From an uncultured Actinomycetes bacterium (GTDB taxonomy: Bacteria > Actinomycetota > Coriobacteriia > Anaerosomatales > PHET01), in NCBI GenBank assembly GCA_963700665.1, contig CAVOYK010000009.1:52324-116323 (forward strand): DNA of 64,000 nt, read 5' to 3'. The translations under genes and the position numbers were made by a program. Below, piece after piece: positions 9,794 through 45,500 of this stretch; within the stretch, counting starts at the first letter, position 1; each line of letters opens with the position of its first letter. The notes beneath the pieces are model-generated. The model had not been told where the DNA came from. It saw nothing but the letters and a program-made list of their open reading frames with translations, and did no database searches.

Positions 9794-9814
9794 TATTCCC
9801 TCCTTCCCAGTTCT

Positions 9815-11159
9815 CTAGCGCGCCACGAACGGCACGAAGCTGTCAGGATAGCCCTTCTCGGTGCACGCCATGCAGGGGTGACCAGCCGCGTGCAGTGACC
9901 GCCGGTCTTCTGACCGTTGGGGGCTAGGTTCGTCGTCGGACCGCCGTAGTTCCAGGCGTCCGGGTTCTCCGGCTGCTGGTTGTTCCAGCCGTGCATGCCA
10001 CACAGCGAGTTCGTCGCGGGGCCCTTGCATCCGATCTTCTGCAGGCAGCCGGGGTCGCCGGGCTTGGCCGCGAAGTCGCCCTTGACGTAGTCGCGATAGC
10101 GCGGGCAGTACGGGCCGTGGATCGGCGTGCCGTAGACCATCTTGAGGCGACGATCGCCGTCGATGGCGTTGGCGTTGAACGACAGGTCCTGGTTGACGAT
10201 GCCCAGAGGACCGTCGGTCGCCGCGAGCGGGCCGTTGACGAGGTCGACGAGGAACAGCACGACCGTGAGGGTGAACCACCACGGGTTGGTCGGGCAACCA
10301 GGAACGTTGACGACCTTGTTGGCGGCGGCCGTGTGGCCGTGCGCAACGAGGTAGTCGTAGGTGCCCATGGCACCGGTCTGCGACTGCAGCGGATCGAAGC
10401 CCGCGGTTGCAGCGCTGATCGGGGGCTTGCAGCCCGGATAGCCGCCGAAGGTGGCGCACTGACCGATCGGGATGACCGCGACGCAGGTCGCCTTGGTCGG
10501 CGAGCGTCGACGACCGTCTCGGCCATGTCGTGCTCGATCGGTGCCGTCGGCAGACATGCCGATGGAGCACCACGGAACGCTCGTGTCGCCGTGTCGCCCC
10601 ACGCGCCGCCACCGGCAGCGTCCTGAAGCGCACCCTCGACGACGAGCACGAACGGCCGTCGCCGGGTTGGGCCGCTGATCCGGGCACGTAGTTCCTGAAG
10701 TCCTCGAGCCACTGGGCCGCGAGGTCGCCGCCCATGCCCATGACGGTCTCGTGGTACTGCAGGTCGATGACGTCGACGACGACGTCGGCGATGTTCATCG
10801 CCGAGCTGTCGCCCTCGACGTTGTAGCCCGGTCGCGTGAAGCGTGAAGTCGCGCGCCACCGAGCTGCGTCGGCAGGATGCCCGCGCAGGCCCGCGGCCGC
10901 ACCTGTCGTGATGTCGGTGCCCTCGACCGCGATGCCGCCGGTGTCCTCGAAGATGCCGAGAAGCGACGTCGAACAGCCAGTGCACTCCGCGCCGTGGATC
11001 CAAACGACCCGCGGCTTGCCGAGCGTGCCGCCGAGATCGGTGCTGCCGGTGCCGAAGGCGAACGCTCTCGACGAGCTTCGAGACTTCGGCCTGGCTCATC
11101 CCGACGGCGGCGGCGAGCGCACCCAGGCGGGTGACGAACTGTCGCCTGGTTATAGCCAT
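9815..11159 (-). pseudogene. [NiFe]-hydrogenase small subunit, Tat-exported, no C-terminal membrane anchor; at least 4 frame changes
   Basis: ATG at 11159 follows GAAGGAGGAG. Twin-arginine leader MAITRRQFVTRLGALAAAVGMSQA. Manual translation gives VVWIHGAECTGCSTSLL. Later fragments give GQCATFGGYPG, NVPGCPTNPWW and GCKGPATNSLC, ending HPCMACTEKGYPDSFVPFVAR. Confidence 0.85.
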
Positions 11160-14323: not shown

Positions 14324-14406
14324 GCTCTCTGCAACCTCGATTCGTCTCTGGCGCGGAACGACAGAAGCCTGGCCGTGCCAAGCACGAGCACAGAGGTAGA
14401 TGCAAA

Positions 14407-16001
14407 CTAGACTCCAACGTCCGTGTGACAGCGAATACAGAGCGACGCGCCCTTGTAGGGGGCTATCTGCCGGTTGAACGGGTCGAGCGCACCGTGGCAA
14501 TCGTAGCAGAGCCGCAAGTCGTGCCCTTGCTGTGCAGCCGCCTTCTGGGCCGCCTCGACTCTCACCAAAGCTCACGTGACACTCGTAGCACTTGTAGGGC
14601 TTGCCCTTCTCTTTGGCAACGTTGAAGTGAACGGCGTGCTCGGCGATCCCCTTGTGCTGGATCGACGTCGCCGGCTTCTGCTTCGCGATCGGGTGACACG
14701 GCGACGCAGTTCTTCTCGACCAGCTCGGCGTTCTTCACGTTGCCGTGGTGGCAGTCTTGCAGCTCTTGCGGTCACGATGGCAGATGAAGCAGTCGCTCGA
14801 CTCCGACGCCCGGAGGCGGCCTGTGGTCGGCGATGAAGGCCGGCGTGTGCGGGACCACGGTCTGGTGACACCTCTGGCACGACGGGCCCGTGTGGCAGAC
14901 CCCGCACGTCCAGGAGCCCTCAAGGAAGAGCTTGCCGTGCTGGCTCCGCCACTTCGCGTCCTTGTGGTCGGCCGGGAATCACCGGCTTGTCGGGGGCGTA
15001 GGGTCCGCTCCCCTTGCCGTTGTGACAGTCGATGCAGAACTTCTCCCCGTGACACATCGCGCAGTACGCGGGGTCTTTGAGCGCTCTGTTCTTGTGCTTG
15101 CCCTTGGCGAACTTCTTCGTGTGGTTGGCGGGCTTGAGTTCGAACGACTTGGGGTGGCACTTGTCGCAGTCCTCTGTTGCGATCTGGCCGCCTCTCGCGT
15201 GCTGGAGTCCGTGACAGCGGTAGCACGACAGCATGTCGGGCGTCTGCACGCCGTCGGGGTTGTGCGGGAACTCCTGGTGACACGCCTCGCACTGGTAGTT
15301 GCGAACGAGGTGGTCGGCGTGGGCGAAGATCACCGTCCCGGGAGTGATCGCGTCGAGGTCGGGGTGACAGTACACGCACTGCGACATCGAGACCGGGCCG
15401 TCGGGGTAGATCTTGACCGACGGCGTCCTTGGGTCGCGGCTGGAACACCGTGTGGTAGGCGTCGGGCATCTCGGGTACGTCCGGCGCCTCGTCCGCATGA
15501 CACTCGTTGCAGTCGGTCGATGCGTTGTGGCACATCATGCACGAGTTGACTCCCTGCGCGATCGCCGGCCTTGGCATGAGGCTTCTTGGCCCAGTCGTCG
15601 CCGTGGTCCTTGGGACGCAGATCGAATGACTTGGTGTGGCAGTCCTTGCACTCGCTCGTGGCCAGCTCGCCTTGGGGGCCGTGCTCGACTCCGTGGCAGG
15701 CGAAGCACACCTCCATGGGGATGCGCTCGGTCACGCCGTCTCTGTGCGGCAAGCGCGAGTGGCAGCCGTCGCAGCTGACCAGCAGGTGGTTGCCGTGACT
15801 GAACTTCAGCCCGGGCACGTTCACCGATCCAAGATCCAGGTGACACGGTGCGCACTGTGTCGGCTCGACCGGCGCCGCTGTGTCGATCACCGGGTCCTCG
15901 GCGGCGTCTCCCATGGGCGCGGACGCAAGCAGGAAGGCGGCCGCGATAGCAATCGCGACCACCCCCCAGAGCAGTAGCCTTCTGTTGGTCCGGCGCAGCA
16001 A
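14407..16001 (-). pseudogene. Secreted multihaem c-type cytochrome with about 20 CxxCH motifs; at least 6 frame changes
   Basis: TTG at 16001, sequence MLRRTNRRLLLWGVVAIAIAAAFLLASA. Motifs by manual stitching of ORFs 15330..16001, 14735..15577 and 14920..15498 plus other frames: CAPCH, CDGCH, CFACH, CKDCH, CMMCH, CNECH, CVYCH, CEACH, CYRCH, CDKCH, CAMCH, CIDCH, CGVCH, CQRCH, CFICH, CKDCH, CVACH, CYECH, CYDCH, CIRCH. Stop is TAG at 14407. Confidence 0.7.
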
Positions 16002-16032
16002 CCCTGCCGCCCGTCTCCTTATGTTGCGACCC

Positions 16033-17344
16033 CTAGCCGCCGCCGGTGATTCGCGAAATCAGCTGCAGCAGCGGATTGTCCTGGGTCTTCTGCGCTTTCG
16101 TATGGATGAGCTCAGCAGCAGCCGCGCCAAACTGCTCGTTGGAGCCCTGATGGCATCCTTCTTTGCCGCACGTCTCCCCGACGTTGGCGGGATTGACGCT
16201 CGATTCGGGGTCTTCTTTGGACAGCACTTTGTGTGAGTTGTGGCAGTCCCAGCACGCCGGCGCGTCGGATGCGCCGGACTTGTACGCCCTGCCGTGGTAG
16301 TAGTCGTCGTAGGTGTCGTACTCGTCGCCGTGCTGCTTGCAGCGCGCGCACACGCGATACGAGGACATGTGCATCCGCTGCTTGGCGAGCTCGGTGTCGA
16401 GGCGGTAGATGTAGTGGCCGCCATGGCACGACCCGCACGTCGCCGAGTCGTAGTTGCCATCCTCGAGCGCCGCCGCATGGGTCGACTTGTTGTACGCCGG
16501 CACCACGTCGCTCAGGTTCTTCTCCTTCTGCTCCTCGTGACAGGCGCCGCACGCATCACTGGCGTTGACGGTCCACAGCTGACTCGCCTGCGCCTGGTCG
16601 TCGTAGCGGTAGTCGGGGTGGCACTCCTGACACGTGACGTCGGTGTGCGCCGAGGCGTTCAGGCCAACGACCTCGAACGACCTCATCCCGGTGGCCGAGC
16701 GCTTGTTGAGCGCGTCTCCGTGGCACGCAAGGCACCCGTCACCGGCGTTGTAGTCCCAGCTCGCGGGCGCCCAGACGACACCCTCTTGGTCGTGACACTC
16801 GGTGCACGACTCGGGCTTGTGGCACATCGCGCACCTGGTGTTGAACTCCTTCTCGGCGGGAGCCACGTGCTCCTTGCCTGCCCAGCCGTACGTGTGGAAG
16901 GCGGGACGCAGTCGCTCCTTGGGGGTGACGTGGCAGTCCTCGCATGCGTCAGAGGCGATGATGCCCATCGGCCCGTGCCGTACGCCGTGACAGTCGAAGC
17001 AGCCCTTCATGTCCGGCCGCTCGATCGTCGCGTCCGCTCTGTGAGGGAAGCGCGGGTGACAGGCGCTGCACGACACGAGCTGGTGATAGCCGTGCTGGAA
17101 GATGATCGACGACGAGTAGTTCTTCGTCTGCGCGATGTTGCCATGGCACGTCAGAGTGCACGCGTCCTTGTAGACCGGCGTGTCCTGAAGCGTCTGGAAG
17201 AGCTGCTCGAACGATTGCGGGTCGGCATCGGTGGGTGCCTCGGCGGCCATCGCGACGCTCGCACCGAGAACCGCCGGCGAACGCCAAAGCTGCGAGAGCG
17301 ACCCCGAGCATCCTGCCGAGGCGATGTCGGAACCTGATCGCCAT
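16033..17344 (-). pseudogene. Secreted multihaem c-type cytochrome (10 CxxCH plus CX3CH, CxxCK and CX4CH variants); 1 frame change in the signal peptide
   Basis: ATG at 17344, MAIRFRHRLGRMLGVALAALAFAG. After a 1-nt shift near 17270 it joins AVLGASVAMA-AEAPTD of ORF 16033..17559. Motifs: CTLTCH, CSACH, CFDCH, CEDCH, CAMCH, CTECH, CLACH, CQECH, CGACH, CGSCH, CARCK, CWDCH, CGKEGCH. Confidence 0.75.
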
Positions 17345-17387
17345 GTCGTCGTACCCCTTCTTCCCTGCGGAGCGGACCCCGCAAACG

Positions 17388-18307
17388 CTACTGGAACAAC
17401 GCTGCTATGTTCTCCAGCGCCGCCGAAATACCTTGCTTCGCCGAGTCGTAGAGTGCCCACAACGGGTTCTGCTCGAGAGCGTCTTGCTTGCCGTGAATCA
17501 GCTCGGCGTACTCCACGAACTCCTCGTTCACGTCCTGGTGGCAGCCCTCTTGCCCGCACGTCTCAACGAGATTGTCCGGGTGGACGGGCGAGGCCTTGTC
17601 GCTGGCGGGCAGAACCAGATGGGCGCCGTGACAGTCCCAGCAGGCTGGGGCGTCCCACGGAGCGCCCTCCCGATAGGCCGCACCGTGGTAGTAGTCGCTG
17701 TAGGTCTCGGCGCCGTCCGTGTGGCAGTCGCCACAGATCTCGATGCCATCCTTCTGGAACGCCACCTGTGCGGCAGTGTCCTCCTTCGACGGCACTGCGT
17801 GACCTCCGTGGCACCCGCCGCACGTCGGGATCTCGGTAGGCTTCCCCTCGGCCTCTCGCACTGCGGCCTGCTGCTCGGCCGTGACGTTGGGCGGGAGAAC
17901 CGGCGAGTGCGCGACCGCCGTTGATCTCATCCTTCTGCCCGACGTGGTCCTTGCAGCTCTGGCACGACGCTGTTTGCCACCGCCTTCCACGCGTAGCTGT
18001 CCCCCGCGTTCTCGTGCGGAGTCTTGAGCGCGAAGTCGACGTGGCAGCCCGTACACAGAGCCTCAGGGTGAGCCGACGCGTCCAAGACCACCTGGTCAAC
18101 GTAGAGCGACGACGTCGTCTCCGCGCTGGTCTGCTGCAGGCCGGGATCCCCATGGCACACCATGCAGCCGGACTTGCCGGCCGTGGGCAGCGTCCAGTCC
18201 AGGTTGTAGGTCCGGCTCGACTCCTTCGACGAAGCCGCGTACGCCGCACACGGCAGCAAGAGCAAGAACGCCGCAACCAAGACCACTATGGCGTGCCGTG
18301 CTCTCAC
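17388..18307 (-). pseudogene. Secreted multihaem c-type cytochrome, shorter paralogue of 16033..17344; 2 frame changes
   Basis: Signal peptide MRARHAIVVLVAAFLLLLPCAAYA. Motifs CMVCH, CTGCH, CQSCK (in a short frameshift-flanked segment), CGGCH, CGDCH, CWDCH, CGQEGCH. The C-terminal half aligns by eye with the neighbouring paralogue (YYHG.AY..G...APACWDCH). Confidence 0.7.
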
Positions 18308-18324
18308 GTGCGCGCGAACCTCCC

Positions 18325-19149
18325 TTATGCGTGTTCTGCCGACGCGTACGAGGGAGCCGGCTCGTGACCGTCTCCGCCGTGCTCGTCTTCGTCAGTGTGT
18401 GCAACTTTCCGGCCGAGACCGCTCATACCGAAGAAATCAAGGAACGCCGGGAAGTCCTCGGTGACCGAGAGGTACACGTGGATCGTGGTCAGGATGATGA
18501 AGAGCCAGTTCACGATGTAGTGGCCGGTCCGAACCCAGAAGATGCCCTCGGCGCCGATGAGTCCGGCGGAAAGCTGGTACAGACTCGCGTTGATGATCGG
18601 CAGCGGCAGACGCCACAGCATCAGACCCGTGATCGCCTGCACTATCAGAAGCGGCACGAACAGCGTGTAGGTGCCCTTCTGCATGACGTTGTACTTGCCG
18701 AGGTGGGGCTTGGAGGGCTTGACGAAGATGTAGTAGAGGATGACTTGGGGCGCGGTCGTGATGTCGCGCTTGGTGATCGCGAACTCCTTGTAGTCACGCT
18801 GCCGAGAGGCGAACGCGTACCACAGGCGCCAGATGAGGTTCACGATCACGATCCACATGAAGATGTAGTGGGCCCAGCGCATCGGAGTCCGGTTGAACTG
18901 GGGGAACCGGATGAGCAGGCCCGTGACGGCGAGCATGATCATGCTGAAGACGTGCATGAAGTGAAGGAACTTGGGCAGGAAGGGAGGATGGCTGTCGTGG
19001 TGAGGCCATTCCCACTGCTTGCCAAAGCGGCGCTTCGCGCGCCCGCTCAGGATATTGCCGATGAAGTGACACGACAACGCGATCAAGATGACCACGTAGA
19101 GCGACGTGAACACCACATCGAGCCAGACATTCAGTTGCGTCAGTCCCAT
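18325..19149 (-). CDS. Integral-membrane b-type cytochrome (Ni/Fe-hydrogenase CybH / FdnI-like family)
   Basis: Intact ORF with ATG at 19149 (MGLTQLNVW...). It has multiple TM helices with His residues (HFIGN, HFMH, HYIFMW, HYIVNW, IHVYL). It is the first gene of the cytochrome operon. Confidence 0.6.
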   Translation of the reverse strand: MGLTQLNVWLDVVFTSLYVVILIALSCHFIGNILSGRAKRRFGKQWEWPHHDSHPPFLPKFLHFMHVFSMIMLAVTGLLIRFPQFNRTPMRWAHYIFMWIVIVNLIWRLWYAFASRQRDYKEFAITKRDITTAPQVILYYIFVKPSKPHLGKYNVMQKGTYTLFVPLLIVQAITGLMLWRLPLPIINASLYQLSAGLIGAEGIFWVRTGHYIVNWLFIILTTIHVYLSVTEDFPAFLDFFGMSGLGRKVAHTDEDEHGGDGHEPAPSYASAEHA

Positions 19150-19266
19150 CGACTGACACCCCCTACTCCCGTGTCGCGCCCGGCCTGGGCATGATGACCC
19201 CTCAGCTCCCGTGGCGTGACTCCACCTAGCGACGCTGTCCGGGCGCCGAGATACGGGGCTGAAGGC

Positions 19267-19315
19267 TTGTAACACCAGTTACGAGCAGAATAGGGGCGCT
19301 GAGCAGGAGTGTCAA
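19267..19315 (-). promoter_or_regulatory. Putative sigma70-type promoter (TTGACA-17nt-TATTCT) followed after 2 nt by palindrome TCGTAAC-N4-GTTACAA
   Basis: Read on the minus strand: -35 at 19315..19310, -10 at 19292..19287, palindrome at 19284..19267 (plus strand TTGTAACACCAGTTACGA). It lies about 130 nt upstream of the cytochrome b ATG. Confidence 0.45.
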
Positions 19316-29929: not shown

Positions 29930-30391
29930 CTACTGGACGGCGGTCACCACGTAGTCGAGCTGGGTCGTCGATGTCTCGATCCGCGAGACTGTCACGAAGC
30001 CCTCGAGGGCATCACCCGTCACCGTCAGCACGACGCTTCCGGCATCCTCCCCGCCCGTTTGCTCCTGCGCGACCTTCCACCCGGCCTGCTCGAATCCGGC
30101 GGCGATACCGCTGAGCACGTCCTCATAGGGGTCTGAGGTCACCAGCGTCAGACCGTACGCATCTTCGGTACCCGCGGACTCGAGCACCTCAGCTCCGGGC
30201 CACAGGGGCAGACCCTCAGGGGTGTCGGCTGACAGCTCCCCCATCACCTCGGCACCAGCGACGGCTACCGTCGCTTCTTGAGTGACGACCTTGGGGGGAG
30301 GCGTGAATCGCTCCTCGAGGCTCTTGCAGCCAACCAGCGCGAACAACAGGACGGCTGCCAGTGCGGACAGTGTGATGGTTCGGCGGTTCAT
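29930..30391 (-). CDS. Lipoprotein of unknown function
   Basis: ATG at 30391, MNRRTITLSALAAVLLFALVGCKS lipobox. Acidic mature part. Confidence 0.5.
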   Translation of the reverse strand: MNRRTITLSALAAVLLFALVGCKSLEERFTPPPKVVTQEATVAVAGAEVMGELSADTPEGLPLWPGAEVLESAGTEDAYGLTLVTSDPYEDVLSGIAAGFEQAGWKVAQEQTGGEDAGSVVLTVTGDALEGFVTVSRIETSTTQLDYVVTAVQ

Positions 30392-30631
30392 GCGAAGTCT
30401 CCTCGGACGGTCACCGCAGCGCCGCGACGAGTCGGGCGCAGACCTGTATGTGGCGGAAGCGTCTGGAAATCGAATCCAGCCAGGAGGCTCTTCACCCCCC
30501 ACGACGGTTTTGAAGACCGCGGAGCCCACCAGGACCCATCCGCCTCCGTCGGACGATTGTGGAGAGGACGCCGGAGCGTGTCAAACACACCGCACAATTG
30601 GGCAGCTACTGCACGACGAGAGGGGTTCGAA

Positions 30632-31537
30632 GTGGCGAAGAGGCCGTTGGTGGTTGCGGTGACCGTATTCCTGGTGATCGCGGCACTCATCGCCGCGTTC
30701 GTGGGAACGGCGCTCGCGACCGACAGACCGCAGTTCTGTCCTACGTGTCACGAGATGAAGCCCTACTTCGATGCGTGGGCCGCTGGTCCCCACAACGAAA
30801 CGTGGTGCATCGACTGCCACGTCGAGCCCGGGATGACTGCGCGATTCGCCCACAAGTTCGTTGCGCTCCAGGAGGTCTACTCCCACGTCATCGGCAACAC
30901 GTCGTTTCCCCGCGCCGTTCCGCCCGTAGTCCCCGACGCCCGGTGCCTTTCGTGCCATCCAAGCGTACCCGCCTCGATCGACGGATTCCCGCACGCGGCG
31001 CACGCCGAGAAGGGCTACTGCGCGCAGTGCCACTACAACACCGGCCACGATGTCACCGACGAAGCGCTACAGGCTGCGGGTGTATTCGATCCGGCGGCCA
31101 CGCCGCAACGGCTCGGCGGCGAACTGGCCACCGTCGGCAGCGGCAAGGCGAACCTCGCCGGCCACAAGGCCGTGAGCTGCTCGAAGTGCCATGACATGCA
31201 GGCGACCCCCTGCGCTTCGTGCCATTCGCCGCGCGGCGACGAGCATCCCAAAGTCGGCAAGGTGGCCTGCACGGAGTGCCACCCGACAGACGGCGGGTCG
31301 TGGGCGTTCGCACACCCAAACGTCAAGGGCGATTGCGCTGAGTGCCACAAGGCCCCCGCGAAGCACCCGGCGGGCGCCTGTGAGGCATGCCACAAGAACT
31401 CCGGCCGCTCGTGGTCGTTCGCGCACCCGCGCGCCGGCGAGCACTCGTACCGCAGCTTCCCGTGCAAGAAGTGCCACCCAAGTACCTACGACAAGGTGTA
31501 CTGCACCTGCCACAAGGGCCGTCCTCCTCGCGACTAG
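30632..31537 (+). CDS. Membrane-anchored NrfH/NapC/NirT-type multihaem cytochrome (10 CxxCH plus terminal CTCH) with one di-haem SWAF module
   Basis: GTG at 30632. TM helix VVAVTVFLVIAALIAAFVGTALA, then FCPTCHEM (the CxxCHxM signature of NrfH), CIDCH, CLSCH, CAQCH. The extension carries CSKCH, CASCH, CTECH, CAECH, CEACH and CKKCH. The ORF is intact. Confidence 0.75.
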   Translation: MAKRPLVVAVTVFLVIAALIAAFVGTALATDRPQFCPTCHEMKPYFDAWAAGPHNETWCIDCHVEPGMTARFAHKFVALQEVYSHVIGNTSFPRAVPPVVPDARCLSCHPSVPASIDGFPHAAHAEKGYCAQCHYNTGHDVTDEALQAAGVFDPAATPQRLGGELATVGSGKANLAGHKAVSCSKCHDMQATPCASCHSPRGDEHPKVGKVACTECHPTDGGSWAFAHPNVKGDCAECHKAPAKHPAGACEACHKNSGRSWSFAHPRAGEHSYRSFPCKKCHPSTYDKVYCTCHKGRPPRD

Positions 31538-31640
31538 GAGGCGTTGGCGCTGCTAGCGGGCGTGAGAGGTTTCTCATCCTGGTCTCATGTGGCGTTCACC
31601 GTGCGAGCCGATGCTAGGTGTTGCACGCGCCTCGGCAACC

Positions 31641-33254
31641 ATGGAGAACCGCATGTCTCAGGTACGGAGTTGGGCGGCATCGCACAAAGGACTGGCGGCC
31701 ACGTTCGTTGTGGTGGCCGTTCTGCTGTCTCTCGCCGCCGCCATCGGGGTCGCCCAGGCAACCGACAAGCCCGCCTTCTGCGGCGCGGCTTGCCACGAGA
31801 TGGGTCCGTACCACTCGGCGTGGAGCCAGGGGCCCCACAGCGAGATCGAGTGTGTCGAGTGCCACGTAGAGCCGGGCACCGTTGCACGGCTCACACACAA
31901 GGCCGAAGCGATGCGCGAGCTATGGGTGCACCTGTCGGGCGACCCCAAGTTCCCGCTGCCGAGCACGTCCGTCGTGCCCAACGAGCGCTGTATTCGATGC
32001 CACGAAACGGTCAAGACCAGCGATCTCGACCACGCGAAGCACGCCAAGGACCGACTGTGCATCGACTGCCACTCCGATGCGGGACACAAGGTCGACACCG
32101 CAGCGCTCAGCCAGGCCGGCGTGTTGAGTACCGCGACCAGCCAGACCACGGTGGCCAGCGATACCGCGGTCGCGGTCGTGAACGGTGGATCCGCCAACGT
32201 CGCGGGACACGTCCCGGTTTCGTGCTCGCGCTGTCACGACATGGCCAAGACCGGGTGCGACGCGTGCCACGACTCCAAGCACGAGAAGACGGGACCCGCC
32301 GAGAAGAGCGCCGAGTGCACTACGTGCCACGCACCCGGCACGGAGTTCACCTTCGTGCATCCCGAGGGCAAGTTGGACTGCAGCTCGTGCCACGACCAGC
32401 CCACGACCGATCACGAGTTCACCGGTGAGTGCACTGACTGCCACGCTCAGCAGGGAGCGTCGTGGGCATTCGATCACAGCGGGCGCTCCCAGTGTCAGAA
32501 CTGTCACGAGGCTCCCGAGAAGCACCGCGCGGGAGCCTGCTCCAAGTGTCACAAGCCCGGCCCGAAGTGGACCTTCAAGCATCCGGGTTCGTCCTCACAG
32601 TGCACCGCGTGCCACACGAAGCCCGCGGGACACCGCGCCGGTGCCTGCGCGACGTGCCATCGCACCGGTAGCTCCTGGGCGTTTCGCCATCCCAGCAACA
32701 GGTCGTGCACGAGCTGTCACAACCGCCCGTCCGGGCACCGCTCCGGCTCCTGCACGTCGTGTCACCGCGCCGGTGGCTCGTGGGCGTTCCGTCACCCCAG
32801 CTCAGGCTCGTGCTCCAGCTGTCACAAGCGCCCCTCGGGGCACAAGTCCGGGTCGTGCTCCTCGTGCCACCGCTCGGGCCGCTCGTGGGCGTTCCGTCAC
32901 CCTGGCTCGGGCGCGAAGTGCACGAGTTGTCACAAGCGCCCCTCGGGGCACAAGTCCGGGTCGTGCTCCTCGTGTCACCGCACGGGTCGCTCGTGGGCGT
33001 TCCGTCACAGCAGCTCGAGCCGGTGCTCTTCATGCCACAAGGCACCCTCCAAGCACTACGGATCGTCGTGCTCGTCGTGCCACTCGCCCAGCAGGTCCTG
33101 GCGGAATGCCAAGTTCAGCCACCCACGGATCCGTGGCGGAGAGCATTCGTATCGCAGTTTCGCTTGCACGAAGTGCCACCCAAACGGGTATGGTTCGGCT
33201 ACGTGTCGAGCGTGTCACAGCACTTCGGGCGGTCCAAAGGATGACGACGATTAA
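31641..33254 (+). CDS. Membrane-anchored NrfH/NapC-type multihaem cytochrome paralogue with about 23 haem motifs, including a tandem array of 36-aa di-haem modules
   Basis: Start is ATG 31641 or 31653. TM helix LAATFVVVAVLLSLAAAIGVAQA, then FCGAACHEM (CX3CH), CVECH, CIRCH, CIDCH. Nineteen more CxxCH follow. The ORF is intact (the track lists it from 31587). Confidence 0.75.
   Translation: MENRMSQVRSWAASHKGLAATFVVVAVLLSLAAAIGVAQATDKPAFCGAACHEMGPYHSAWSQGPHSEIECVECHVEPGTVARLTHKAEAMRELWVHLSGDPKFPLPSTSVVPNERCIRCHETVKTSDLDHAKHAKDRLCIDCHSDAGHKVDTAALSQAGVLSTATSQTTVASDTAVAVVNGGSANVAGHVPVSCSRCHDMAKTGCDACHDSKHEKTGPAEKSAECTTCHAPGTEFTFVHPEGKLDCSSCHDQPTTDHEFTGECTDCHAQQGASWAFDHSGRSQCQNCHEAPEKHRAGACSKCHKPGPKWTFKHPGSSSQCTACHTKPAGHRAGACATCHRTGSSWAFRHPSNRSCTSCHNRPSGHRSGSCTSCHRAGGSWAFRHPSSGSCSSCHKRPSGHKSGSCSSCHRSGRSWAFRHPGSGAKCTSCHKRPSGHKSGSCSSCHRTGRSWAFRHSSSSRCSSCHKAPSKHYGSSCSSCHSPSRSWRNAKFSHPRIRGGEHSYRSFACTKCHPNGYGSATCRACHSTSGGPKDDDD
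32493..33101 (+). repeat. Coding tandem repeat: about 6 copies of a 105-108 bp (35-36 aa) unit, C..CH.(K/R)P.GH..G.C..CHR.G.SWAF.HP
   Basis: Units start at CQNCH, CTACH, CTSCH, CSSCH, CTSCH and CSSCH. The copies at ~32820 and ~32928 share a long near-identical DNA stretch (tgtcacaagcgcccctcggggcacaagtccgggtcgtgctcctcgtg). Confidence 0.85.
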
Positions 33255-33705
33255 GCGACGACCAGCACGTGAGGGAGCCCTGCAGGCGCCCGCAGCGCAG
33301 AGGACGGTGGTGATCGCAGGCGCCGTCCTACTGCTCGTTATGGGGAGCGGTCTGGCGGTCGCCGCCGGAGCGGGCAGCACCACACGCGCGTCGACTCCGA
33401 CGGTGATCAGGTCGGACCGCACCGTCGAGCCGGTCCCTGTCGCAGCAACGCCTGAGTCCCTCGCCACCGACGCACAGCAGGCGCCCAAGACCACCAAGCC
33501 GCGCGCGGACAAGCCGTCCGCCGCCGGCTCTGGCCCAGCAGCGAAGAAGAGTTCGCGTAAGTCATCGGCCAAGCGCGCCGAGAAGAAGGACGACGATAAT
33601 CGTGAAACCGTTCGTCCGCCCGTTCGCGACGAGGACGACGACGAGGAACACGAGACCGTTCGTCCGCCCGTTCGCGACGAGGACGACGAGCACGACTCCG
33701 ACTAG
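33241..33705 (+). CDS. Small single-pass membrane protein with disordered Lys/Asp-rich tail
   Basis: ATG at 33241 overlaps the cytochrome stop by 14 nt. Sequence MTTIKRRPAREG..., TM helix VVIAGAVLLLVMGSGLAVAAGAG, tail with ETVRPPVRDEDD twice. It was read from the distal part of ORF 32185..33705. Confidence 0.4.
   Translation: MTTIKRRPAREGALQAPAAQRTVVIAGAVLLLVMGSGLAVAAGAGSTTRASTPTVIRSDRTVEPVPVAATPESLATDAQQAPKTTKPRADKPSAAGSGPAAKKSSRKSSAKRAEKKDDDNRETVRPPVRDEDDDEEHETVRPPVRDEDDEHDSD
33607..33689 (+). repeat. Perfect 35-nt direct repeat, period 48 nt
   Basis: accgttcgtccgcccgttcgcgacgaggacgacga occurs at 33607-33641 and again at 33655-33689. Confidence 0.85.
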
Positions 33706-33780
33706 CTCGGTCAGAGCACGCTGAGGGGAATGTAGTGTCGAGGGCAAAGCTCGTGCGCCCAGCGCCGCAAGGGAGTCGCA

Positions 33781-34449
33781 TTGAACATCCTGCTCGTCGA
33801 AGACGAGGACAACATCGCCTCGTTCATGTCCAAAGGCCTCACAGCCGAGGGCCATCACGTCGAACGCGCGGCAACGGCCGGTGACGGCGCGGCGCTTGCC
33901 GTGACCTACGACTTCGATGTCGTGCTGCTCGATCTCATGCTGCCTGATGCCAGCGGACGAGACGCGCTCGAGCGCATACGGCAGGTCAAGCCGGATGTCC
34001 CCGTCATCGTTGTCTCGGCTCTGGGTGAGACCGAAGACAAGGTCGACCTGCTCGACCTTGGCGCCAACGACTACCTCGTCAAACCATTCGCTTTCGCCGA
34101 GCTTGCTGCGCGAGTGAGGGCGGCGGGCAGACAGGGCGCAGCGTCCGGCCGTCTGCTTGAGGTGACGGATCTGACCCTCGACACGAAGACCCGAGTCGCT
34201 TCGATGGGCGATGGCCGCAAGGTGGACCTGCCCACACGCGAGTTCACGCTACTGGAGTATCTGATGCGGCACCCCGGCCAGATCTTGAGCCGACAGCAGA
34301 TCCTCGACGCCGTATGGGGCATCGACTTCGACACGGACAGCAACGTCGTCGACGTCTACGTGAGCTACCTTCGCCGCAAGCTGGATCTCGGCGATGGGCC
34401 TTCGGTGATCGAGACCGTGCGCGGAGCCGGCTACCGTGTCAGGGCGTAG
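33781..34449 (+). CDS. OmpR-family response regulator
   Basis: 222 aa, intact. TTG start follows AAGGGAG. Receiver domain LLVEDE...VLLDLMLPD, winged-helix C-terminus TVRGAGYRV. Confidence 0.9.
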   Translation: MNILLVEDEDNIASFMSKGLTAEGHHVERAATAGDGAALAVTYDFDVVLLDLMLPDASGRDALERIRQVKPDVPVIVVSALGETEDKVDLLDLGANDYLVKPFAFAELAARVRAAGRQGAASGRLLEVTDLTLDTKTRVASMGDGRKVDLPTREFTLLEYLMRHPGQILSRQQILDAVWGIDFDTDSNVVDVYVSYLRRKLDLGDGPSVIETVRGAGYRVRA

Positions 34450-35845
34450 GCAGCACTTCTCGGCAAGTGCGCGCGTCCTGTTCGCGATGGCGGGCATGCT
34501 CGCGACCGCGATAGCGCTGCTCGTCTTGCTTGCCTATACGGTCACGTGGCAAACGCTCACGTCTTCGCTCGACGAGACGCTCTTCCGCGAATCCCAGGCC
34601 TACTCGGCGGCCATGAAGGGCGCTCCTGCGGGCGACGCGCTCTCGGATGCCACCCGTTCCTACCTGAGCGGGCGCACCGGTGGAGAGGCTGGCGGCGTGT
34701 CCCCCATCTTGCTCGTCAGGCTCAACAACGGGCGAGTGATATCGAACTCGAACCTCCGCATCGAGGACGCGGCGGGGTCACCAGCCACCGCCACTGCGGC
34801 CCCGGTCTATACGACAGTGACCCTCGGCGGCGACGTCTATCGCACGCTCGCGACACCGCTGTTCGCGCAAGGCGAGCAGGTGGGCCTCTTCGAGGCCGCT
34901 CTCGCCTTGGGTCCCATCCAGCAGACGGCGTCCAACGTGGCGACGACGCTGTCCGCGGCGGGTCTGATCGCACTCGCGATCATGTTGCCCCTCGCCTACT
35001 TCGCCACCCGAAGAGCGCTCTCCCCACTCAGGCGCATGGCCCAAGATGCCGCCGTGGTATCGCACGCTCAACCTGGTCGGCGCATCGACTACAACGGGCC
35101 GCGCGACGAACTCGGATCGCTGGCCGACTCGCTCAACAGCATGCTGATGCGACTTGAGAACTCCTTCGACGACCAGCGCCGTTTCGTCGCTGACGCGAGT
35201 CACGAGCTGCGCACGCCCGTAGCCGTTGTGCGCGGCAACGTCGAGCTTCTGCGCTCCGGGAGGTCCACTGGCGCGGAGGCCACCGAGAGCCTGGCGATGA
35301 TCGAGAACGAGGCCGTGCGCATGACTCGGCTGCTCGACGAGATGCTCGCGCTTGCCCGGCTCGAGGACCCGGATCGTCTTCAGTTCCAGCCGCTCGACGC
35401 CAAAACGCTCGTTGAAGAGGCCGCTGCCCGTGCGAAGACGCTCGGGACGCGGCAGATCGTACAGGCCGATGTGTGCGACATGTGGGTCGAAGGCGACCCG
35501 GACCTGCTAGACCGCGCACTGCTGAACCTCGTGAAGAACGCGGTCGCCCACACGCATGAAGGTGGCCGGATCGTACTGGGGTGCACGGCCGACACCAAAC
35601 ACGTGCGGATCTCGGTCACCGACGACGGTCCCGGCATCCCCGCGCCAGAGCTTGACCGGGTCTTCGACCGTTTCTATCGCGCTCACGGTGGGCGCCGAGA
35701 CGACGCGACCGGCGGGGCGGGGCTCGGCCTGGCCATCGTCCGCCGGCTTGTGGAACTGCACGGCGGCACGGTGCAGGCAGAAAACGTCGATCCCCACGGG
35801 GCTCGCTTCACCATCGAGCTTCCCCGGATCACCACGCCGACCTAG
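34436..35845 (+). CDS. Sensor histidine kinase (two TM segments, HAMP, HisKA, HATPase_c)
   Basis: 469 aa, intact. H-box ADASHELRTP, N-box LLNLVKNAVAH, G-boxes DDGPGIP and GGAGLGLAIV. Confidence 0.9.
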   Translation: MSGRRQHFSASARVLFAMAGMLATAIALLVLLAYTVTWQTLTSSLDETLFRESQAYSAAMKGAPAGDALSDATRSYLSGRTGGEAGGVSPILLVRLNNGRVISNSNLRIEDAAGSPATATAAPVYTTVTLGGDVYRTLATPLFAQGEQVGLFEAALALGPIQQTASNVATTLSAAGLIALAIMLPLAYFATRRALSPLRRMAQDAAVVSHAQPGRRIDYNGPRDELGSLADSLNSMLMRLENSFDDQRRFVADASHELRTPVAVVRGNVELLRSGRSTGAEATESLAMIENEAVRMTRLLDEMLALARLEDPDRLQFQPLDAKTLVEEAAARAKTLGTRQIVQADVCDMWVEGDPDLLDRALLNLVKNAVAHTHEGGRIVLGCTADTKHVRISVTDDGPGIPAPELDRVFDRFYRAHGGRRDDATGGAGLGLAIVRRLVELHGGTVQAENVDPHGARFTIELPRITTPT

Positions 35846-35871
35846 CCTACGTCGCCGTGCGTCTGGGGCTC

Positions 35872-37791
35872 CTACCCGGACCTCAGCACTCTGAGGTCGC
35901 CTTCTCGGCGAGTGACGCCCTGGGCGTCGAAGTACTCCAGCAACGGTATCGCGTACTTGCGGCTCACGCCGAGCACATCACGCAACTCAGCGGCGGTTGC
36001 ACCGGTGGGATGCTCCTCGAGGTAGCGAATCAGACCCGCCTTCGCGCCGTCCATCGCCGTGGCCGAGAAGTGGAGCTCGCTCGAGACCCGTACGACGGCG
36101 CCGTTGCTCACCAGTCGGCCCAAGACCTTGCGCGCGGTGCCCGCGTCGGCTCCCGCCTCGGCCGCCAACTCGGCCACACTAGCCGGAGCGAGGCCTTGGC
36201 TTTCGAGCAACGGTAGCAGTCGCGCCTCGGCCTGGGCCTCGGCCGCCAATGCACTCACTGCGGCCTTTGGATGGCGGACCCGGCCCTTCTCGGAGATCGC
36301 CACGCCGCGATCCTGGGCGACGCCGAGCACCGCGTCGAACGCCTTGGGTGAGAGACGCCGGTCGACTCGATCTCGAAGTGCCAGCGTTGCGATGCCCGTG
36401 GCCTTGGGGTCGGCCTCGTGGAACGAGACGAGCTCGGTGTCCACCTGACCGACGAGCCGGTCGAGCGCCTCGGGTGTGACGAACGCCGTCTCGCCTGCGA
36501 CCTTCACGCGCTCGAGCGTGGCCTTGTTGAGCTCGTCGGCAACCTGCGCCCTTGGCACCCCCAAAGCCGTGGCGACCTCGGCGCTGGTCATCGGCAGGCC
36601 GCGCGATGCCAGTAGCCCCACGCTTGCCGAGGACAGATCGTGTGCGAGCAGCGCATCGAGTAGTTCGCGTTCGTGCGCTCTCAAGACAGTGCGCCGAGGC
36701 GGCAGTGCGTCGAGCACGACTCCGCCACCGATGGTGTAGACCGGCGAGTAGCTCCGCACGATGAAGCGATCGTCGTACCTGGGCGCGAGCGGCTGCTCGA
36801 GCCGAACCTGGGCCAGCGCGCTAGCGCCGGGCACAAGCTTCGCGGCATCCATGAGCAGTACGCGGCCGAGCACCTCCCGCGTCCCGTGGTGGACGTGCAC
36901 GCGAGCGCCGGACTCGAACGGCCTGTCTTCGCCAGGCGTGCCGAGGTAGGTGAAGCGCGCATCGAAGCGGTCGGTGACGGTGAGCGTGCCCGGCGCGGCG
37001 ACGATGTCGCCACGGCGGATCTGGTCGCGCTCGATGCCCGTGACGTTCATGGCGACGCGCTGGCCCGCATGCGCGCGCTCCACCCCCTGCCCGTGAACCT
37101 GCACGCCTCGAACACGACCGCCCACGCGGCCCGGGTAGATCTCCACGGGATCGTCCTTGGCGGCGGACCCGGACCACATGGTGCCCGTGACCACGGTACC
37201 CGCACCGGCGATGGTGAAGACCCGGTCGACAGGCAGGCGCAGGGGGGAGTCCGCGTGTTTGCTCGGCGCATCCACGGCGACGGCGTCCAACGCCGCGAGC
37301 AGCTCGGGAAGACCGGCGCCGGTCTTGGACGACACGCCGACGATGGGCGCCCCCGCGATGGAGGTGCCCGCGAGTAGTTGCTCCACGTCCGAGCGAACGA
37401 GCGCGAGCCAGTCATCGTCGACGAGGTCGGCCTTGGTGAGCGCGACGACGCCCCGCTCGACGCCGAGCAGGTCGATGATGGCGAGATGCTCGCGCGTCTG
37501 CGGCATGACACCGTCGTCTGCCGCGATCACGAGCAGCACCACGTCGATGCCGGTCGCGCCGGCGACCATCTGACGCACGAACTTCTCGTGCCCTGGCACG
37601 TCGACCACGCCCATGGACCGGCCGCTGGGAAGCTCAAGGCGGGCGAAGCCCAGCTCGATCGTGATGCCGCGGTCCTGCTCCTCCTTCAAGCGATCCGGGT
37701 CGGTCCCGGTAAGCGCCTTGATCAAGGAGGACTTGCCGTGGTCGATGTGTCCTGCGGTACCGAGAACGAGCGAGGGCATGGGCGCACCCAA
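35872..37791 (-). CDS. selB: Selenocysteine-specific translation elongation factor SelB
   Basis: 639 aa, intact. GTPase motifs [21 protein letters not shown]. Long C-terminal winged-helix region ending [10 protein letters not shown]. Confidence 0.85.
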
Positions 37792-41946: not shown

Positions 41947-43344
41947 CTAGGGAGCGATCGCCCTGGAGAGTGCCGCAGCGACGAGCTCGTCCTCGCCTGT
42001 GACAAGCGTGCGCGGATCGAGCAGCAGACGACCGTCCTTGACTCGGGCCACGATCGCGGGCTCAGCGGCGAGTCGCAGACGCTCCTCGAGTTCGACCACG
42101 CTGACCGTGCGGGGAGCAACCGCTGCAACCGCCGTGGGAATGTCGGTGATCGGGAGAGCGCCGCCGCCGGCGCGTGCGATGTCATCGAGCACGACGACGT
42201 CTGCAGCATCGCCCACCGCCGAGCGGACCTTGTCGGCAAGGTGCTGTGCGAGCACGCGGCACTCTTCCAGCGGCATCGCCAGCATCCGCAGGGTCGGTAT
42301 CTCTCTGACGGCCTGCTCCTCGTCGAGATAGGCGCGCAGGGTGGCCTCAAGCGCCGCAAGCGTCATCTTGTCCAGCCGTAGCGCGCGGGCCATGGGGTGC
42401 TTCTTGAGGCGCTGGATCACGTCGAAGCGCCCCACCAGAATGCCCGCTTGCGGGCCCCCCAGGAGCTTGTCCCCGCTGCAGGTCACGACTGCAGCGCCCT
42501 GCGAGACGCTCTCGGCGACGGTGGGCTCGTACGGAAGTCCGTAGTGTCTGAGGTCGACAAGCACGCCAGAACCCTGGTCCTCCATCACCGGCACGCCGTG
42601 CGTAGCACCGAGCTCGGCCAGATCGCGCACTTCGACCTCGGCGGTGAAGCCGACGACTCGAAAGTTGCTCGAATGGACCTTGAGGAAGAGTCCCGTGCGC
42701 TCGGTCAGGGCCGACTCGTAGTCCGATAGGTGCGTCTTGTTCGTGGTCCCGACCTCGACCATCGTTGCTCCGGACTCGCGCATGATGTCGGGGATGCGGA
42801 ACGACCCGCCGATCTCGACGAGCTGTCCGCGACTCACTATCGCCTCTTTGTCGCGGGCGAGCGCGGCAAGCCCGATCATCACCGCTGCGGCGTTGTTGTT
42901 GACGGCCATGGCCGCCTCGGCACCGGTGAGCCGGCACAGCAGCTGTTCGCAGTGCACATGCCGGCTGCCGCGCTCGCCGCTTTCCACGTCGTACTCGAGA
43001 GTCGAGTAGTGCGTGGCAACCTCGTTGACCGCGCGCGAGGCAGCCTCGGAAAGTACGCTGCGGCCGAGATTGGTGTGCACGATGATGCCGGTGGCGTTGA
43101 CCACTCGCCTGAGAGACGGCCGCGACGCGAGGGCGGCCCTGCCAGCTGCATCTCGCGCAGCGTCTTGGGCTGAGTACTCGATCTGCTCGCCGCCGAGGAT
43201 GCGGGCCCGGGCGTCTTCGATCGCAGACCGCACGGCGTCGACCACCAAAGCGCGAGGCATACCCTCAAGCGAATCGGAGAGTTCCGGACGTGCGAGAACC
43301 TCGTCGGTCTTGGGGAGCGCCCTGAGCAGCGAGTTGGTGTCCAT
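41947..43344 (-). CDS. selA: L-seryl-tRNA(Sec) selenium transferase SelA
   Basis: 465 aa, intact: VVNATGIIVHTNLGRS...NNNAAAVM...SGDKLLGGPQAGI (PLP-Lys context). Confidence 0.85.
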   Translation of the reverse strand: MDTNSLLRALPKTDEVLARPELSDSLEGMPRALVVDAVRSAIEDARARILGGEQIEYSAQDAARDAAGRAALASRPSLRRVVNATGIIVHTNLGRSVLSEAASRAVNEVATHYSTLEYDVESGERGSRHVHCEQLLCRLTGAEAAMAVNNNAAAVMIGLAALARDKEAIVSRGQLVEIGGSFRIPDIMRESGATMVEVGTTNKTHLSDYESALTERTGLFLKVHSSNFRVVGFTAEVEVRDLAELGATHGVPVMEDQGSGVLVDLRHYGLPYEPTVAESVSQGAAVVTCSGDKLLGGPQAGILVGRFDVIQRLKKHPMARALRLDKMTLAALEATLRAYLDEEQAVREIPTLRMLAMPLEECRVLAQHLADKVRSAVGDAADVVVLDDIARAGGGALPITDIPTAVAAVAPRTVSVVELEERLRLAAEPAIVARVKDGRLLLDPRTLVTGEDELVAAALSRAIAP

Positions 43345-44456: not shown

Positions 44457-45500
44457 TCAGGACACGGTGATCGTGCCGGCAGGACCCGCGACCGCGCGCC
44501 CCACTCGGGCCGCCAGTACCCCACGGACCTCGAGGGCCACGCGCAGCTGATCGACCGCGTCTTCGCTCACGGCCATCAGGAGTCCGCCGCTCGTCTGGGG
44601 ATCGCACAGCACCCGCATCCACAGGTCGCGCTCCGCGGGATGCCGCCACTCGACGAAGTCGTCAGCCCACGCGACGACCTCGGCCGTCCGCCCGGGAACA
44701 ACGTCGCTCTGCGCCCATTCGAGCGCCCGCTCGAAGAGCGGGACCGACCCGAGCGCCATGTGCGCCGAGCAGCCACTTGCCGTCACCATCTCGTGAAGGT
44801 GGCCGAGAAGGCCGAAACCCGTGACGTCAGTCGCCGCATGAACGCCGATCTCGACCATCGCCTCGCACGCCGCCTTGTTGAGCGCAGCCATCGACTCGAT
44901 GACCTCGCGGGCGTCGTCCTCGTCGACGAGCCCGCGCTTGAGTGCGGTGCCCCATAGCCCGGTGCCGATGGGCTTCGTGAGCACGAACGCGTCCCCGGGT
45001 AGCACTCCCGTGTTGCGAACCACCTTGTCAGGGTGAACGACGCCAAAGACCGAGAGACCGAACTTGGGCTCCTTGTCGTCGATCGTGTGCCCGCCCACCG
45101 TGACCGCACCGGCTTCCGTGACCTTCTCGGCGCCTCCCCGAACGACCTCACCGACGATGTCAGGGCCCATCGAACAGGGGAACGCAAGCATGTTGAGGGC
45201 GGTCAGCGGCGTGCCCCCCATCGCGTAGATGTCGGACAGCGCGTTGGCGGCGGTGATGCGGCCGAAGTCGTAGGGGTCGTCCACGATCGGCGTGAAGAAG
45301 TCGACGGTGAGCAGCGCCGCAGTGTCGTCGCTCAACCGGTACACGGCGGCGTCGTCGCTGGTCTCGAAGCCGAGAATGAGCGCGTCCGAGTTGCCGGGCG
45401 CGATTCGGTCGAGCACTGCCTGCAGGTCCTCCGGACCCCACTTGGCTGCTCAACCGGCCTTGCTCGACATCTGTGTGAGCTTCACGCGCTCCGCGTCCAC
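44457..45500 (-). CDS. selD: Selenide, water dikinase SelD with in-frame UGA (selenocysteine) at 45452..45450
   Basis: The track ORF 44457..45416 starts at an internal GTG. Manual upstream translation in the same frame gives (GTG 45500) VDAERVKLTQMSSKAG-U-AAKWGPEDLQAVLDRIAPG. This is the G(C/U)xxK active-site loop of SelD. SD GGGGGAGG lies 6 nt before GTG 45500. Confidence 0.8.
45425..45452 (-). promoter_or_regulatory. UGA codon plus downstream hairpin (candidate bacterial SECIS)
   Basis: Twelve nt after the UGA lies GGUCC-GGA-GGACC (45437..45425). The flanking GCA...UGC could extend the stem. Confidence 0.4.

Follow-up and report, generated by a model that had tools for sequence, protein, structure and literature searches.

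The membrane quinol dehydrogenases of the NapC/NirT type, such as NrfH, CymA of Shewanella and TorC/DorC, feed redox partners located outside the cytoplasm. Two genes of this kind, here called cyt1 and cyt2, were analysed in a stretch of 64,000 nucleotides from an uncultured bacterium (assembly GCA_963700665.1, contig CAVOYK010000009.1, positions 52,324 to 116,323), which is referred to as the window. Like the known proteins, they would serve extracytoplasmic partners from the membrane. CymA has four haems and TorC has five, and both are periplasmic in double-membrane bacteria, unlike cyt1 and cyt2; the host of the window is a Gram-positive-type (single-membrane) Coriobacteriia bacterium near the order Anaerosomatales. 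TorC demonstrates that the NapC/NirT family can carry a C-terminal haem extension. The matches of cyt1 and cyt2 to TorC models of NCBIfam are weak and confined to the head of the proteins. A published survey did not find homologues of CymA in Actinobacteria (PMC6295460).

Two membrane multihaem cytochromes of Gram-positive iron reducers offer a further comparison. ImdcA of Thermincola is a proposed quinol oxidase with one high-spin haem, and a 20-haem "putative Q-oxidase" of Carboxydothermus ferrireducens is produced constitutively (PMC7911101, PMC7829351). Both have been proposed to start electron transfer across the wall, as is suggested here for cyt1 and cyt2. However, they come from another phylum, the Bacillota, and are likened to cyt1 and cyt2 by description, not by sequence. 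A series of haem numbers in steps of two, a terminal CxCH motif and a cassette with a two-component system are undescribed for them.

The organism of the window (G+C content 64-69%) resembles the cultured Anaerosomatales, which have 66.6-67.7% G+C and 17-18 multihaem cytochromes and grow on H2 or formate with Fe(III) or sulfur compounds (PMC9686372; PMC11708057). One of them, Parvivirga hydrogeniphila, is an obligate H2- or formate-oxidising Fe(III) reducer with 17 multihaem cytochromes (PMC9686372). A gene pair conserved in both isolates was annotated as "two putative quinol oxidizing multihemes" (PMC9686372). The entry role proposed below matches this annotation-level idea, so that the idea itself is not new. 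A NapC/NirT-type quinol dehydrogenase with extra haems for Gram-positive extracellular respiration is a known kind of protein, already suggested for this lineage.

The most instructive comparison is with NrfH of Desulfovibrio vulgaris (PDB codes 2J7A and 2VR0), which has the same N-terminal helix, four CxxCH motifs and CxxCHxM at haem 1, and which is the sole significant match, in sequence and in fold, to the head of the family. A family profile matches NrfH (2j7a_C) with an E-value of 4.6e-16 over residues 22-146. The family-invariant residues Met42, Lys75 and Glu81 align in this comparison to Met49, Lys82 and Asp89 of NrfH. We take NrfH Met49 to be the proximal ligand of haem 1, and Lys82 and Asp89 to line the site of menaquinol and of 2-heptyl-4-hydroxyquinoline N-oxide (HQNO). 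The Met and Lys positions are retained without exception in the family, the Asp position is occupied by an invariant Glu, which is a conservative change, and the haem 1 motif of cyt2 is CxxxCHxM. Haems 1-4 are invariant in the family alignments and follow a single N-terminal helix, as in the NapC/NirT architecture. The Pfam model PF03264 (NapC/NirT; gathering threshold 24.1 bits) gives 44.4 bits for cyt1 and 36.5 bits for cyt2.

The structural models point in the same direction. The AlphaFold2 model of cyt1 has a predicted local distance difference test score (pLDDT) of 86.9 and a predicted template modelling score of 0.68, and in the model of cyt2 the pLDDT of about 90 in residues 1-210 falls to 40-70 in the repeats. 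Structure prediction had been recommended in a first-pass annotation of this DNA; it gave a confident head, but a rod of low confidence in cyt2. Foldseek searches of the PDB with both proteins returned NrfH alone (2j7a_C and 2vr0_F), for the head only, with E-values of 5e-5 to 1e-4 and target-normalised template modelling scores of 0.58-0.63. The best match of cyt1 was 2j7a_C. The tetrahaem NrfH/NapC core claimed in the first-pass annotation is thus borne out by the Pfam score, the profile match and the fold. Cyt1 and cyt2 belong to the NapC/NirT superfamily with an NrfH-like geometry of the quinol site, and their heads are putative quinol dehydrogenases.

They are not NrfH proper, because their scores with the NrfH equivalog model TIGR03153 (58.8 bits for cyt1 and 71.4 bits for cyt2) are below its cut-off of 134.2 bits, NrfA is not encoded nearby and the proteins have enough His ligands of their own. 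The alignment to this model is nearly full length, covering positions 2-138 of 138 in cyt1. NrfH ends after four haems and is bound to NrfA, which contributes the distal ligand of haem 4. In cyt1 and cyt2, by contrast, the Asp of the quinol site is replaced by Glu, nrfA is absent from the neighbourhood and the chain goes on with 7 or 19 more haems, respectively.

Eleven haem motifs were counted in cyt1 (10 CxxCH and a terminal CTCH) and 23 in cyt2 (22 CxxCH and CGAACH at haem 1), in agreement with the earlier totals of 11 and about 23. All of the cysteines, 22 in cyt1 and 46 in cyt2, lie inside these motifs, and all motifs are located after the membrane anchor. The histidines outside the motifs number 12 for the 11 haems of cyt1 and 26 for the 23 haems of cyt2, with exactly one per haem in the repeat region of cyt2. 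Since every Cys is part of a motif and about one spare His is available for each, the motifs are best read as sites of bis-His c-type haems and not as a generic Cys/His metal repeat. Models of the c3/c7 cytochromes in Pfam score above threshold for cyt2 (PF14537, 56.6 bits; PF14522, 49 bits), and the family profile weakly matches solved multihaem proteins, namely the 16-haem high-molecular-weight cytochrome c and the dodecahaem protein 3ov0. With such scores and such a cysteine pattern, chance is no explanation for the motifs.

At the end of cyt1 the motif is contracted to CTCH. Of 207 complete relatives, which are full-length family members from uncultured Coriobacteriia/Actinomycetota, 107 have C[TS]CH in the same column and 100 have CxxCH; among the 114 homologues of a first search, compared at this column, 81 have C[TS]CH. 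CTCH is therefore a trait of the family and not a sequence error. At the other end of the chain, the expanded CxxxCH at haem 1 occurs in 57 of the 207 complete members. Both CTCH of cyt1 and CGAACH of cyt2 are putative covalent haem sites. Work of Ferousi and colleagues from 2019 (J Biol Chem 294:16953, cited in PMC11492766) is said, by its title, to report that the contracted CXCH motif of a tetrahaem cytochrome of Kuenenia stuttgartiensis is functional. The likeness is that CxCH stands where relatives carry CxxCH. However, the Kuenenia protein is unrelated and from another phylum, while in the cyt1 family CxCH closes the chain of haem sites and exchanges with CxxCH between paralogues and orthologues.

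The part of the proteins beyond the head follows a fixed plan, as seen in alignments of relatives. The four-haem head is followed by two haems (CS.CHDM..T.C..CH), a variable number of modules and a cap, GEHSYRSF.C.KCHP......C(x1-2)CH, with a short acidic end. The module of the rod, C..CH..P..H..G.C..CH..G.SWAF.HP...., spends 35 amino acids (aa) on 2 haems. Cyt1 consists accordingly of a membrane helix (residues 6-30), the tetrahaem head, the 2 conserved haems, a half module, one di-haem module and the two-haem cap. In cyt2 the strict pattern recognises six full modules, together with a degenerate seventh and one half module. The first-pass annotation had the numbers of full modules right, at one and about six, but missed the half modules and the degenerate seventh of cyt2. 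It had also given both proteins the same ending, which holds for GEHSYRSF.C.KCHP but not for the last motif, where cyt1 departs from C..CH.

The number of haems in the family changes in steps of two. In the 207 complete relatives the counts run 9, 11, 13 and so on up to 25, with 196 odd and 11 even values, and the long orthologues of two genomes reach 29 motifs. Protein length equals 18.7 aa per haem plus 107 (r = 0.98) in the same set; within the repeats each haem takes 17.5 aa. Pairs in the relatives always combine a short protein, with 12-15 CxxCH in the full-length orthologues, and a long one with 19-29. This comparison of copy numbers, which had been proposed as a check, agrees with the earlier view of long and short versions of one design. 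The smallest form is represented by locus L040 (positions 6162-7870), in which a minimal family member of 289 aa with 9 haem motifs comes directly after the genes of a NapH-like Fer4_5 polyferredoxin and a TetR regulator. This context suggests a different electron input for short paralogues outside the selenocysteine (sel) locus that surrounds cyt1 and cyt2.

The modules at residues 352, 387 and 423 of cyt2 share 83-93% identity with one another and are closer to each other than to any module of an orthologue. Recent duplicates of this kind are also present in locus L010 (87-97% identity). Some modules are positional orthologues between species. From this sequence pattern, tandem duplication appears to be the way in which the module number changes. 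The rod of cyt2 is net basic (isoelectric point 9.2 for residues 211-533), as would be expected if it must offset the haem propionates. No significant Foldseek match in the PDB was obtained for the rod part, whose predicted structure is of low confidence (pLDDT 40-70).

The module itself is not restricted to this family. A candidate reading in which the SWAF module would be unique to the family was rejected, because many large cytochromes unrelated to it have di-haem repeats of a similar kind. When the rod was used as the query, an exhaustive phmmer search gave 932 cluster representatives, including di-haem-repeat proteins of 700-2005 aa without an NrfH-like head. In a word-indexed search nearly all of the top 120 matches carry the NapC/NirT domain, and the names given are all of Coriobacteriia/Actinobacteria metagenome-assembled genomes. 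The headless giants of 700-2005 aa (P0211-P0226, P0213, P0263, P0271, P0279, P0317 and others), which are metagenomic, have a repeat of about 35-37 residues, C..CH..P..HY.G.C..CH.T..W....F.H, and several of them have an N-terminal helix and a long helical domain; they are probably for the most part uncharacterised. The doubled-CXXCH model PF09699 gave no match for cyt1 or cyt2 at E <= 0.01 and is recorded for the relatives P0113, P0127 and P0146.

Among described proteins, the doubled-CXXCH or "nanowire-like" cytochromes such as GSU1996 (PDB code 3OV0) have a similar di-haem repeat of about 35-40 aa, of which the cyt2 modules are a compact form. GSU1996 uses about 26 aa per haem, so that the repeat part of cyt1 and cyt2 is denser. 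Proteins of the GSU1996 type lack an NrfH-like head, whereas in cyt1 and cyt2 the wire is fused to a membrane domain with a quinol site.

The sequence, family relationship, architecture and synteny of the cassette that contains cyt1 and cyt2 are established. What we infer from these is that haem occupies the motifs, that quinol is oxidised, which way the electrons flow, how far the wire reaches and how the genes are regulated. The two proteins probably form the membrane entry module of extracellular electron transfer, as a tethered wire leading outwards from a quinol-type head. One uncleaved N-terminal helix would hold each cytochrome in the cytoplasmic membrane, facing outwards. Electrons would enter at the NrfH-like head, from menaquinol or from another donor, for example an uptake hydrogenase cytochrome b, and would pass along a single bis-His chain through the two conserved haems and n di-haem modules to the two-haem cap. 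The wire would enter the cell-wall zone or cross it. Its reach beyond the head, estimated very roughly from known haem wires with about 0.8-1 nm per haem, would be 6-7 nm in cyt1 and 15-19 nm in cyt2. From there electrons would go on to other cytochromes of the wall or surface or to external acceptors, for example Fe(III). The short and the long paralogue are an old conserved pair, with changes in module number through tandem duplication.

A more specific proposal, which is less likely to be true than not, is put forward tentatively. One polypeptide would be at once the membrane outlet of electrons, linked to quinol or to hydrogenase, and the wire through the wall. Its reach would be set in two-haem steps (9 + 2n, seen from 9 to 29) by tandem duplication of the 35-residue module, the CxCH haem at which the chain often ends would be a possible exit, and the short and long paralogues would serve two depths of the envelope.

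Several points weigh against the tethered wire. The NrfH equivalog scores fall short of their cut-off, and the linear shape and length of the rod are assumptions, made where the predicted model has a pLDDT of 40-70. Even with 19 extra haems the chain may fall short of spanning a wall described as "thick bilayered". The donor may be something other than quinol, because for both cultured Anaerosomatales the respiratory quinones are given as "not detected" (PMC9686372). The shared cluster of two multihaem genes is reported for Anaerosoma tenue, which nevertheless does not reduce Fe(III) (PMC9686372). The gene pair of the isolates may be of the cyt1/cyt2 family; if the genes of Anaerosoma tenue are the same pair, the pair is insufficient for iron reduction and may serve other acceptors. 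Part of the linkage of the cassette reflects vertical inheritance, because the flanking housekeeping genes (polyprenyl synthase, ATP-binding cassette (ABC) transporter and nitroreductase) are equally syntenic. Finally, the proposal is drawn from sequence, architecture and synteny.

The cytochromes could instead be a classical hub like NrfH, CymA or NapC, which passes electrons from quinol to soluble or wall-zone reductases encoded elsewhere, acting for example on sulfur compounds or nitrite, with the extra haems used for docking or as a buffer. The homology of the head to NrfH is in keeping with such a role, and so are the thiosulfate and sulfur respiration of Anaerosoma tenue, which is reported with a comparable pair and does not respire iron (PMC9686372), and the position of the short family member beside the NapH-like Fer4_5 protein in L040. 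However, no gene of a terminal reductase was found within about 10 kb of cyt1 and cyt2, as had been remarked earlier, though other multihaem genes lie 12-30 kb away. Neither nrfA nor another reductase gene stands beside the cytochromes in the window or in the cassette of any sampled syntenic locus, the absence being judged from these gene neighbourhoods. In NrfH the ligand of haem 4 is provided by NrfA, whereas the present family keeps enough invariant His. Docking would also hardly account for the steady addition of di-haem modules, to as many as 29 motifs. Such a hub is rather unlikely.

It is improbable that the proteins work in the opposite direction, with Fe(II), cathodes or partner cells supplying electrons to the membrane pool, or that they act as a haem capacitor, which buffers electrons when acceptors are scarce. 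Haem chains are reversible. Long multihaem proteins have been discussed as electron stores (PMC11492766), and a related Coriobacteriaceae strain from a biocathode expresses multihaem cytochromes highly, for which electron uptake was proposed (PMC7943316). However, it could not be told whether the biocathode genes belong to the family, and the cultured relatives are oxidisers of H2 or formate that need external acceptors (PMC9686372).

The coordinates of the locus are collected in Table 1.

Table 1. Features of the cytochrome locus (positions in the window)
Feature	Position	Strand	Description
tRNA-Sec (selC)	30451..30547	-	upstream border of the cassette; ARAGORN; Rfam RF01852 63.7 bits against a threshold of 47
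cyt1	30632..31537	+	301 aa; intact; 11 haem motifs; open reading frame and motif scan
cyt1 NapC/NirT/NrfH-type head	30737..31033	+	haems 1-4: CPTCHEM, CIDCH, CLSCH, CAQCH; invariant Met42, Lys75, Glu81
cyt1 terminal contracted haem motif CTCH (CxCH)	31502..31513	+	motif scan; same column C[TS]CH or CxxCH in relatives
cyt2	31653..33254	+	533 aa; intact paralogue of cyt1; 23 haem motifs; six to seven di-haem modules
cyt2 head	31779..32072	+	haems 1-4; haem 1 expanded, CGAACHEM (CxxxCH)
cyt2 haem rod	32316..33152	+	35-aa repeats, 2 haems each
cyt2 recent tandem duplication within rod	32653..33016	+	105-bp period, 3.4 copies, 82% matches (Tandem Repeats Finder)
cyt2 conserved cap	33138..33218	+	GEHSYRSFACTKCHPNGYGSATCRACH; cyt1 counterpart ends in CTCH
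Small single-pass membrane protein	33241..33705	+	154 aa; start overlaps the cyt2 stop codon by 14 nucleotides
OmpR-family response regulator	33781..34449	+	PF00072 and PF00486
Sensor histidine kinase	34436..35845	+	2 membrane helices, extracytoplasmic domain, HAMP, HisKA, HATPase

As the first-pass annotation had stated, both cytochrome genes are intact and are paralogues. They lie on the same strand, and their products share 39% identity (BLASTP E-value 1e-65). The shared features that it listed, a membrane helix, FC..(.)CHEM and three further CxxCH, were all recovered, with a single N-terminal hydrophobic helix in each protein. The small membrane protein and the regulator and kinase pair were likewise placed correctly, downstream on the same strand. 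Cyt1 starts with GTG, 7 nucleotides after the ribosome-binding site GAGAGGGG; an identical protein in the database (P0001, on a 251-kb contig) is called from a later start. The most likely start of cyt2 is ATG, with GGAGAA 5 nucleotides upstream. The start of the kinase gene overlaps the end of the regulator gene, and the remaining gaps in the cassette are about 75-115 nucleotides. A scan of positions 30300-36000 found no intrinsic terminator and no sigma-70-like promoter for cyt1. The five genes look like one operon, because they are co-oriented, tightly spaced or overlapping, and not separated by a terminator-like site. They are probably co-transcribed.

In a scan of species-representative genomes, 35 loci were recovered, all of them from uncultured Coriobacteriia or Actinomycetota of groundwater, sediment and soil; their synteny was assessed by tblastn with the proteins of the window and by inspection of gene calls. 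The family as a whole comprises at least 325 sequence clusters at 90% identity, and its named matches are all from subsurface and sediment Coriobacteriia/Actinomycetota. The cassette of short cytochrome, long cytochrome, small protein, regulator and kinase is found beside selB/selA in at least 14 species-level genomes, the closest locus being L009, from a Danish long-read assembled genome. Across the syntenic loci the regulator orthologues share 64-90% identity. The genes are not always arranged alike: in L001 and L010 one cytochrome, long or short, precedes the small protein, regulator and kinase and the other follows them, and L015 and L016 have the pair of cytochrome genes in divergent orientation. 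The linkage to the two-component system, noticed earlier in the window, has been kept through these changes. At the same spot in L042, and apparently in L008, there is a single short cytochrome, without the two-component system and the small protein. In each relative's pair the first gene is the nearer match of cyt1 and the second that of cyt2; because orthology is clean across the pairs, their duplication is old.

The small protein has no family match in Pfam or NCBIfam. It consists of a membrane helix, a Pro-containing box just outside the membrane that ends in (D)RP in most orthologues, a linker rich in Pro, Ala, Ser and Thr, and an acidic C-terminal box, [DN][HR]E[TV]V.PPVRD[ED]DD, which is duplicated in the copy of the window. 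Orthologues were recognised by position in L004-L007, L009-L012, L016, L017, L020, L021, L029, L039 and L041. In every case the gene immediately precedes that of the regulator, and loci that lack the two-component system lack it as well. Since it co-occurs with this system and not with the cytochrome, the small protein looks like an accessory of it and may be a co-sensor or an accessory of the kinase. The nearest NCBIfam model of the regulator is CztR/SilR/CopR (209.5 bits against a cut-off of 279), and that of the kinase is a heavy-metal sensor (225.4 bits against a cut-off of 292.6). The extracytoplasmic domain of the kinase, of about 125 aa, is conserved, and no conserved Cys, His or Met was found in it among 11 orthologues. 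Heavy-metal sensing of the CusRS/CopRS/CzcRS type was rejected on these scores and on the absence of conserved metal ligands. The small membrane protein, regulator and kinase probably regulate the operon in response to an extracytoplasmic signal.

The arrangement could also mean that the cytochromes report the extracellular redox or acceptor state to the kinase, possibly through the small membrane protein, and do not form a main respiratory route. The tight linkage and probable co-transcription of all the components and a sensor domain without cofactor-binding residues of its own would be consistent with this. However, family members exist without any two-component system, at the same locus or elsewhere (L042, L008, L040, L038), 23 haems are far beyond the needs of sensing, and the small protein goes with the two-component system and not with the cytochrome. 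A role of the cytochromes as sensor input is very unlikely.

The cassette lies within a selenocysteine cluster, which the first-pass annotation had not mentioned. Besides selC, this cluster contains selB, selA and a SelD-like AIRS-domain gene downstream, at 35872-37791, 41947-43344 and 44460-45416, all on the minus strand. The tRNA-Sec gene is 85 nucleotides upstream of cyt1 and has its promoter on the opposite strand (TTGACA-17-CACAAT, 30584-30556). The conserved sequence upstream of cyt1 was considered as a binding site of the regulator, and this was rejected, since it is the tRNA-Sec gene with its own promoter on the other strand. The neighbouring gene on the minus strand (29930-30385), listed as an open reading frame of 29930-30529 that overruns tRNA-Sec, most likely starts at MNRRTITLSALAAVLLFALVGC, which is a lipoprotein signal. 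It is conserved beside the cassette in relatives and has no family match.

This position raises the question of a role in selenium metabolism, in which the cytochromes would reduce selenite or selenate outside the cell for supply or detoxification. In the window a family cytochrome has selC on one side and selB on the other, in most relatives selB/selA directly adjoins the cassette or a lone family cytochrome, even without the two-component system (L042 and L008), and tRNA-Sec is found upstream of the cyt1 orthologues in four loci. However, the flanking polyprenyl synthase, ABC transporter and nitroreductase genes are just as syntenic, and the placement of the cassette in the cluster is for that reason read as probably an inherited gene order and not as a functional link. 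In addition, other family members sit in unrelated contexts, and Anaerosoma tenue reduces neither selenate nor selenite (PMC9686372). Only a remote chance is left to a selenium role. The refuting case named in the first-pass annotation, that the CxxCH repeats are Cys/His metal-binding sites and not haem sites, can practically be dismissed, given the Cys/His pattern described above, the extracellular position of the repeats after a membrane anchor and in continuity with a genuine NrfH-like head, the Pfam cytochrome scores above threshold and the occurrence of the same repeat in many other multihaem proteins.

Other genes of the window are also concerned with electron transfer, all of them on the minus strand. 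A cytochrome b561-like gene at 18328-19275 is followed, in the region 14400-19300, by about 30 CxxCH that are spread over all three minus frames, with frame switches within apparently continuous multihaem genes. These are either long-read indel errors or pseudogenes; the related long-read contig L002 also has split genes. A multihaem gene at 871-1857 has six CxxCH and matches the MtrC/MtrF domain II/IV above the Pfam cut-off, and an overlapping frame in another phase (3-1142) contains FG-GAP repeats and a doubled-CXXCH motif. A further multihaem cytochrome gene is located at 6457-7827. The multihaem genes at 3-1857 and 6457-7827 are possible cell-surface terminal reductases. Pieces of a NiFe/NiFeSe hydrogenase at 7838-8353 and 9796-10602, which comprise the C-terminal part only of the large subunit and a small subunit and look broken up, fit, beside the multihaem genes, an H2 oxidation coupled to extracellular electron transfer. 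With b561-like, multihaem, MtrC/MtrF-domain and hydrogenase genes in one window, the organism appears rich in machinery for extracellular electron transfer.

In the literature that was searched, no description was found of the fixed head-plus-cap plan with 9 + 2n haems, of an alternation between CxCH and CxxCH in the final haem motif and between CxxCH and CxxxCH in the initial one, of the conserved short and long pair, or of the cassette with the small protein and two-component system. A preprint on cytochromes of peat makes no mention of these taxa. To our knowledge, the movement of electrons from membrane to wall in Gram-positive bacteria is understood in outline for a few Bacillota and not at all for Actinomycetota. 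The family is large, and its lineage includes an obligate iron reducer. The contracted motif in the cyt1 family provides a second case, independent of the anammox one, for asking whether CxCH binds haem, and the cassette gives a handle on the regulation of such pathways. Here the best-understood quinol-oxidising head is fused to a haem chain of clean length steps, which offers a natural series for relating the length of a wire to envelope architecture and transfer rate. If the more specific proposal of a combined outlet and wire is true, cyt1 and cyt2 would represent the first defined route of electron export from membrane to wall in Actinomycetota, together with a natural ruler series for haem wires.

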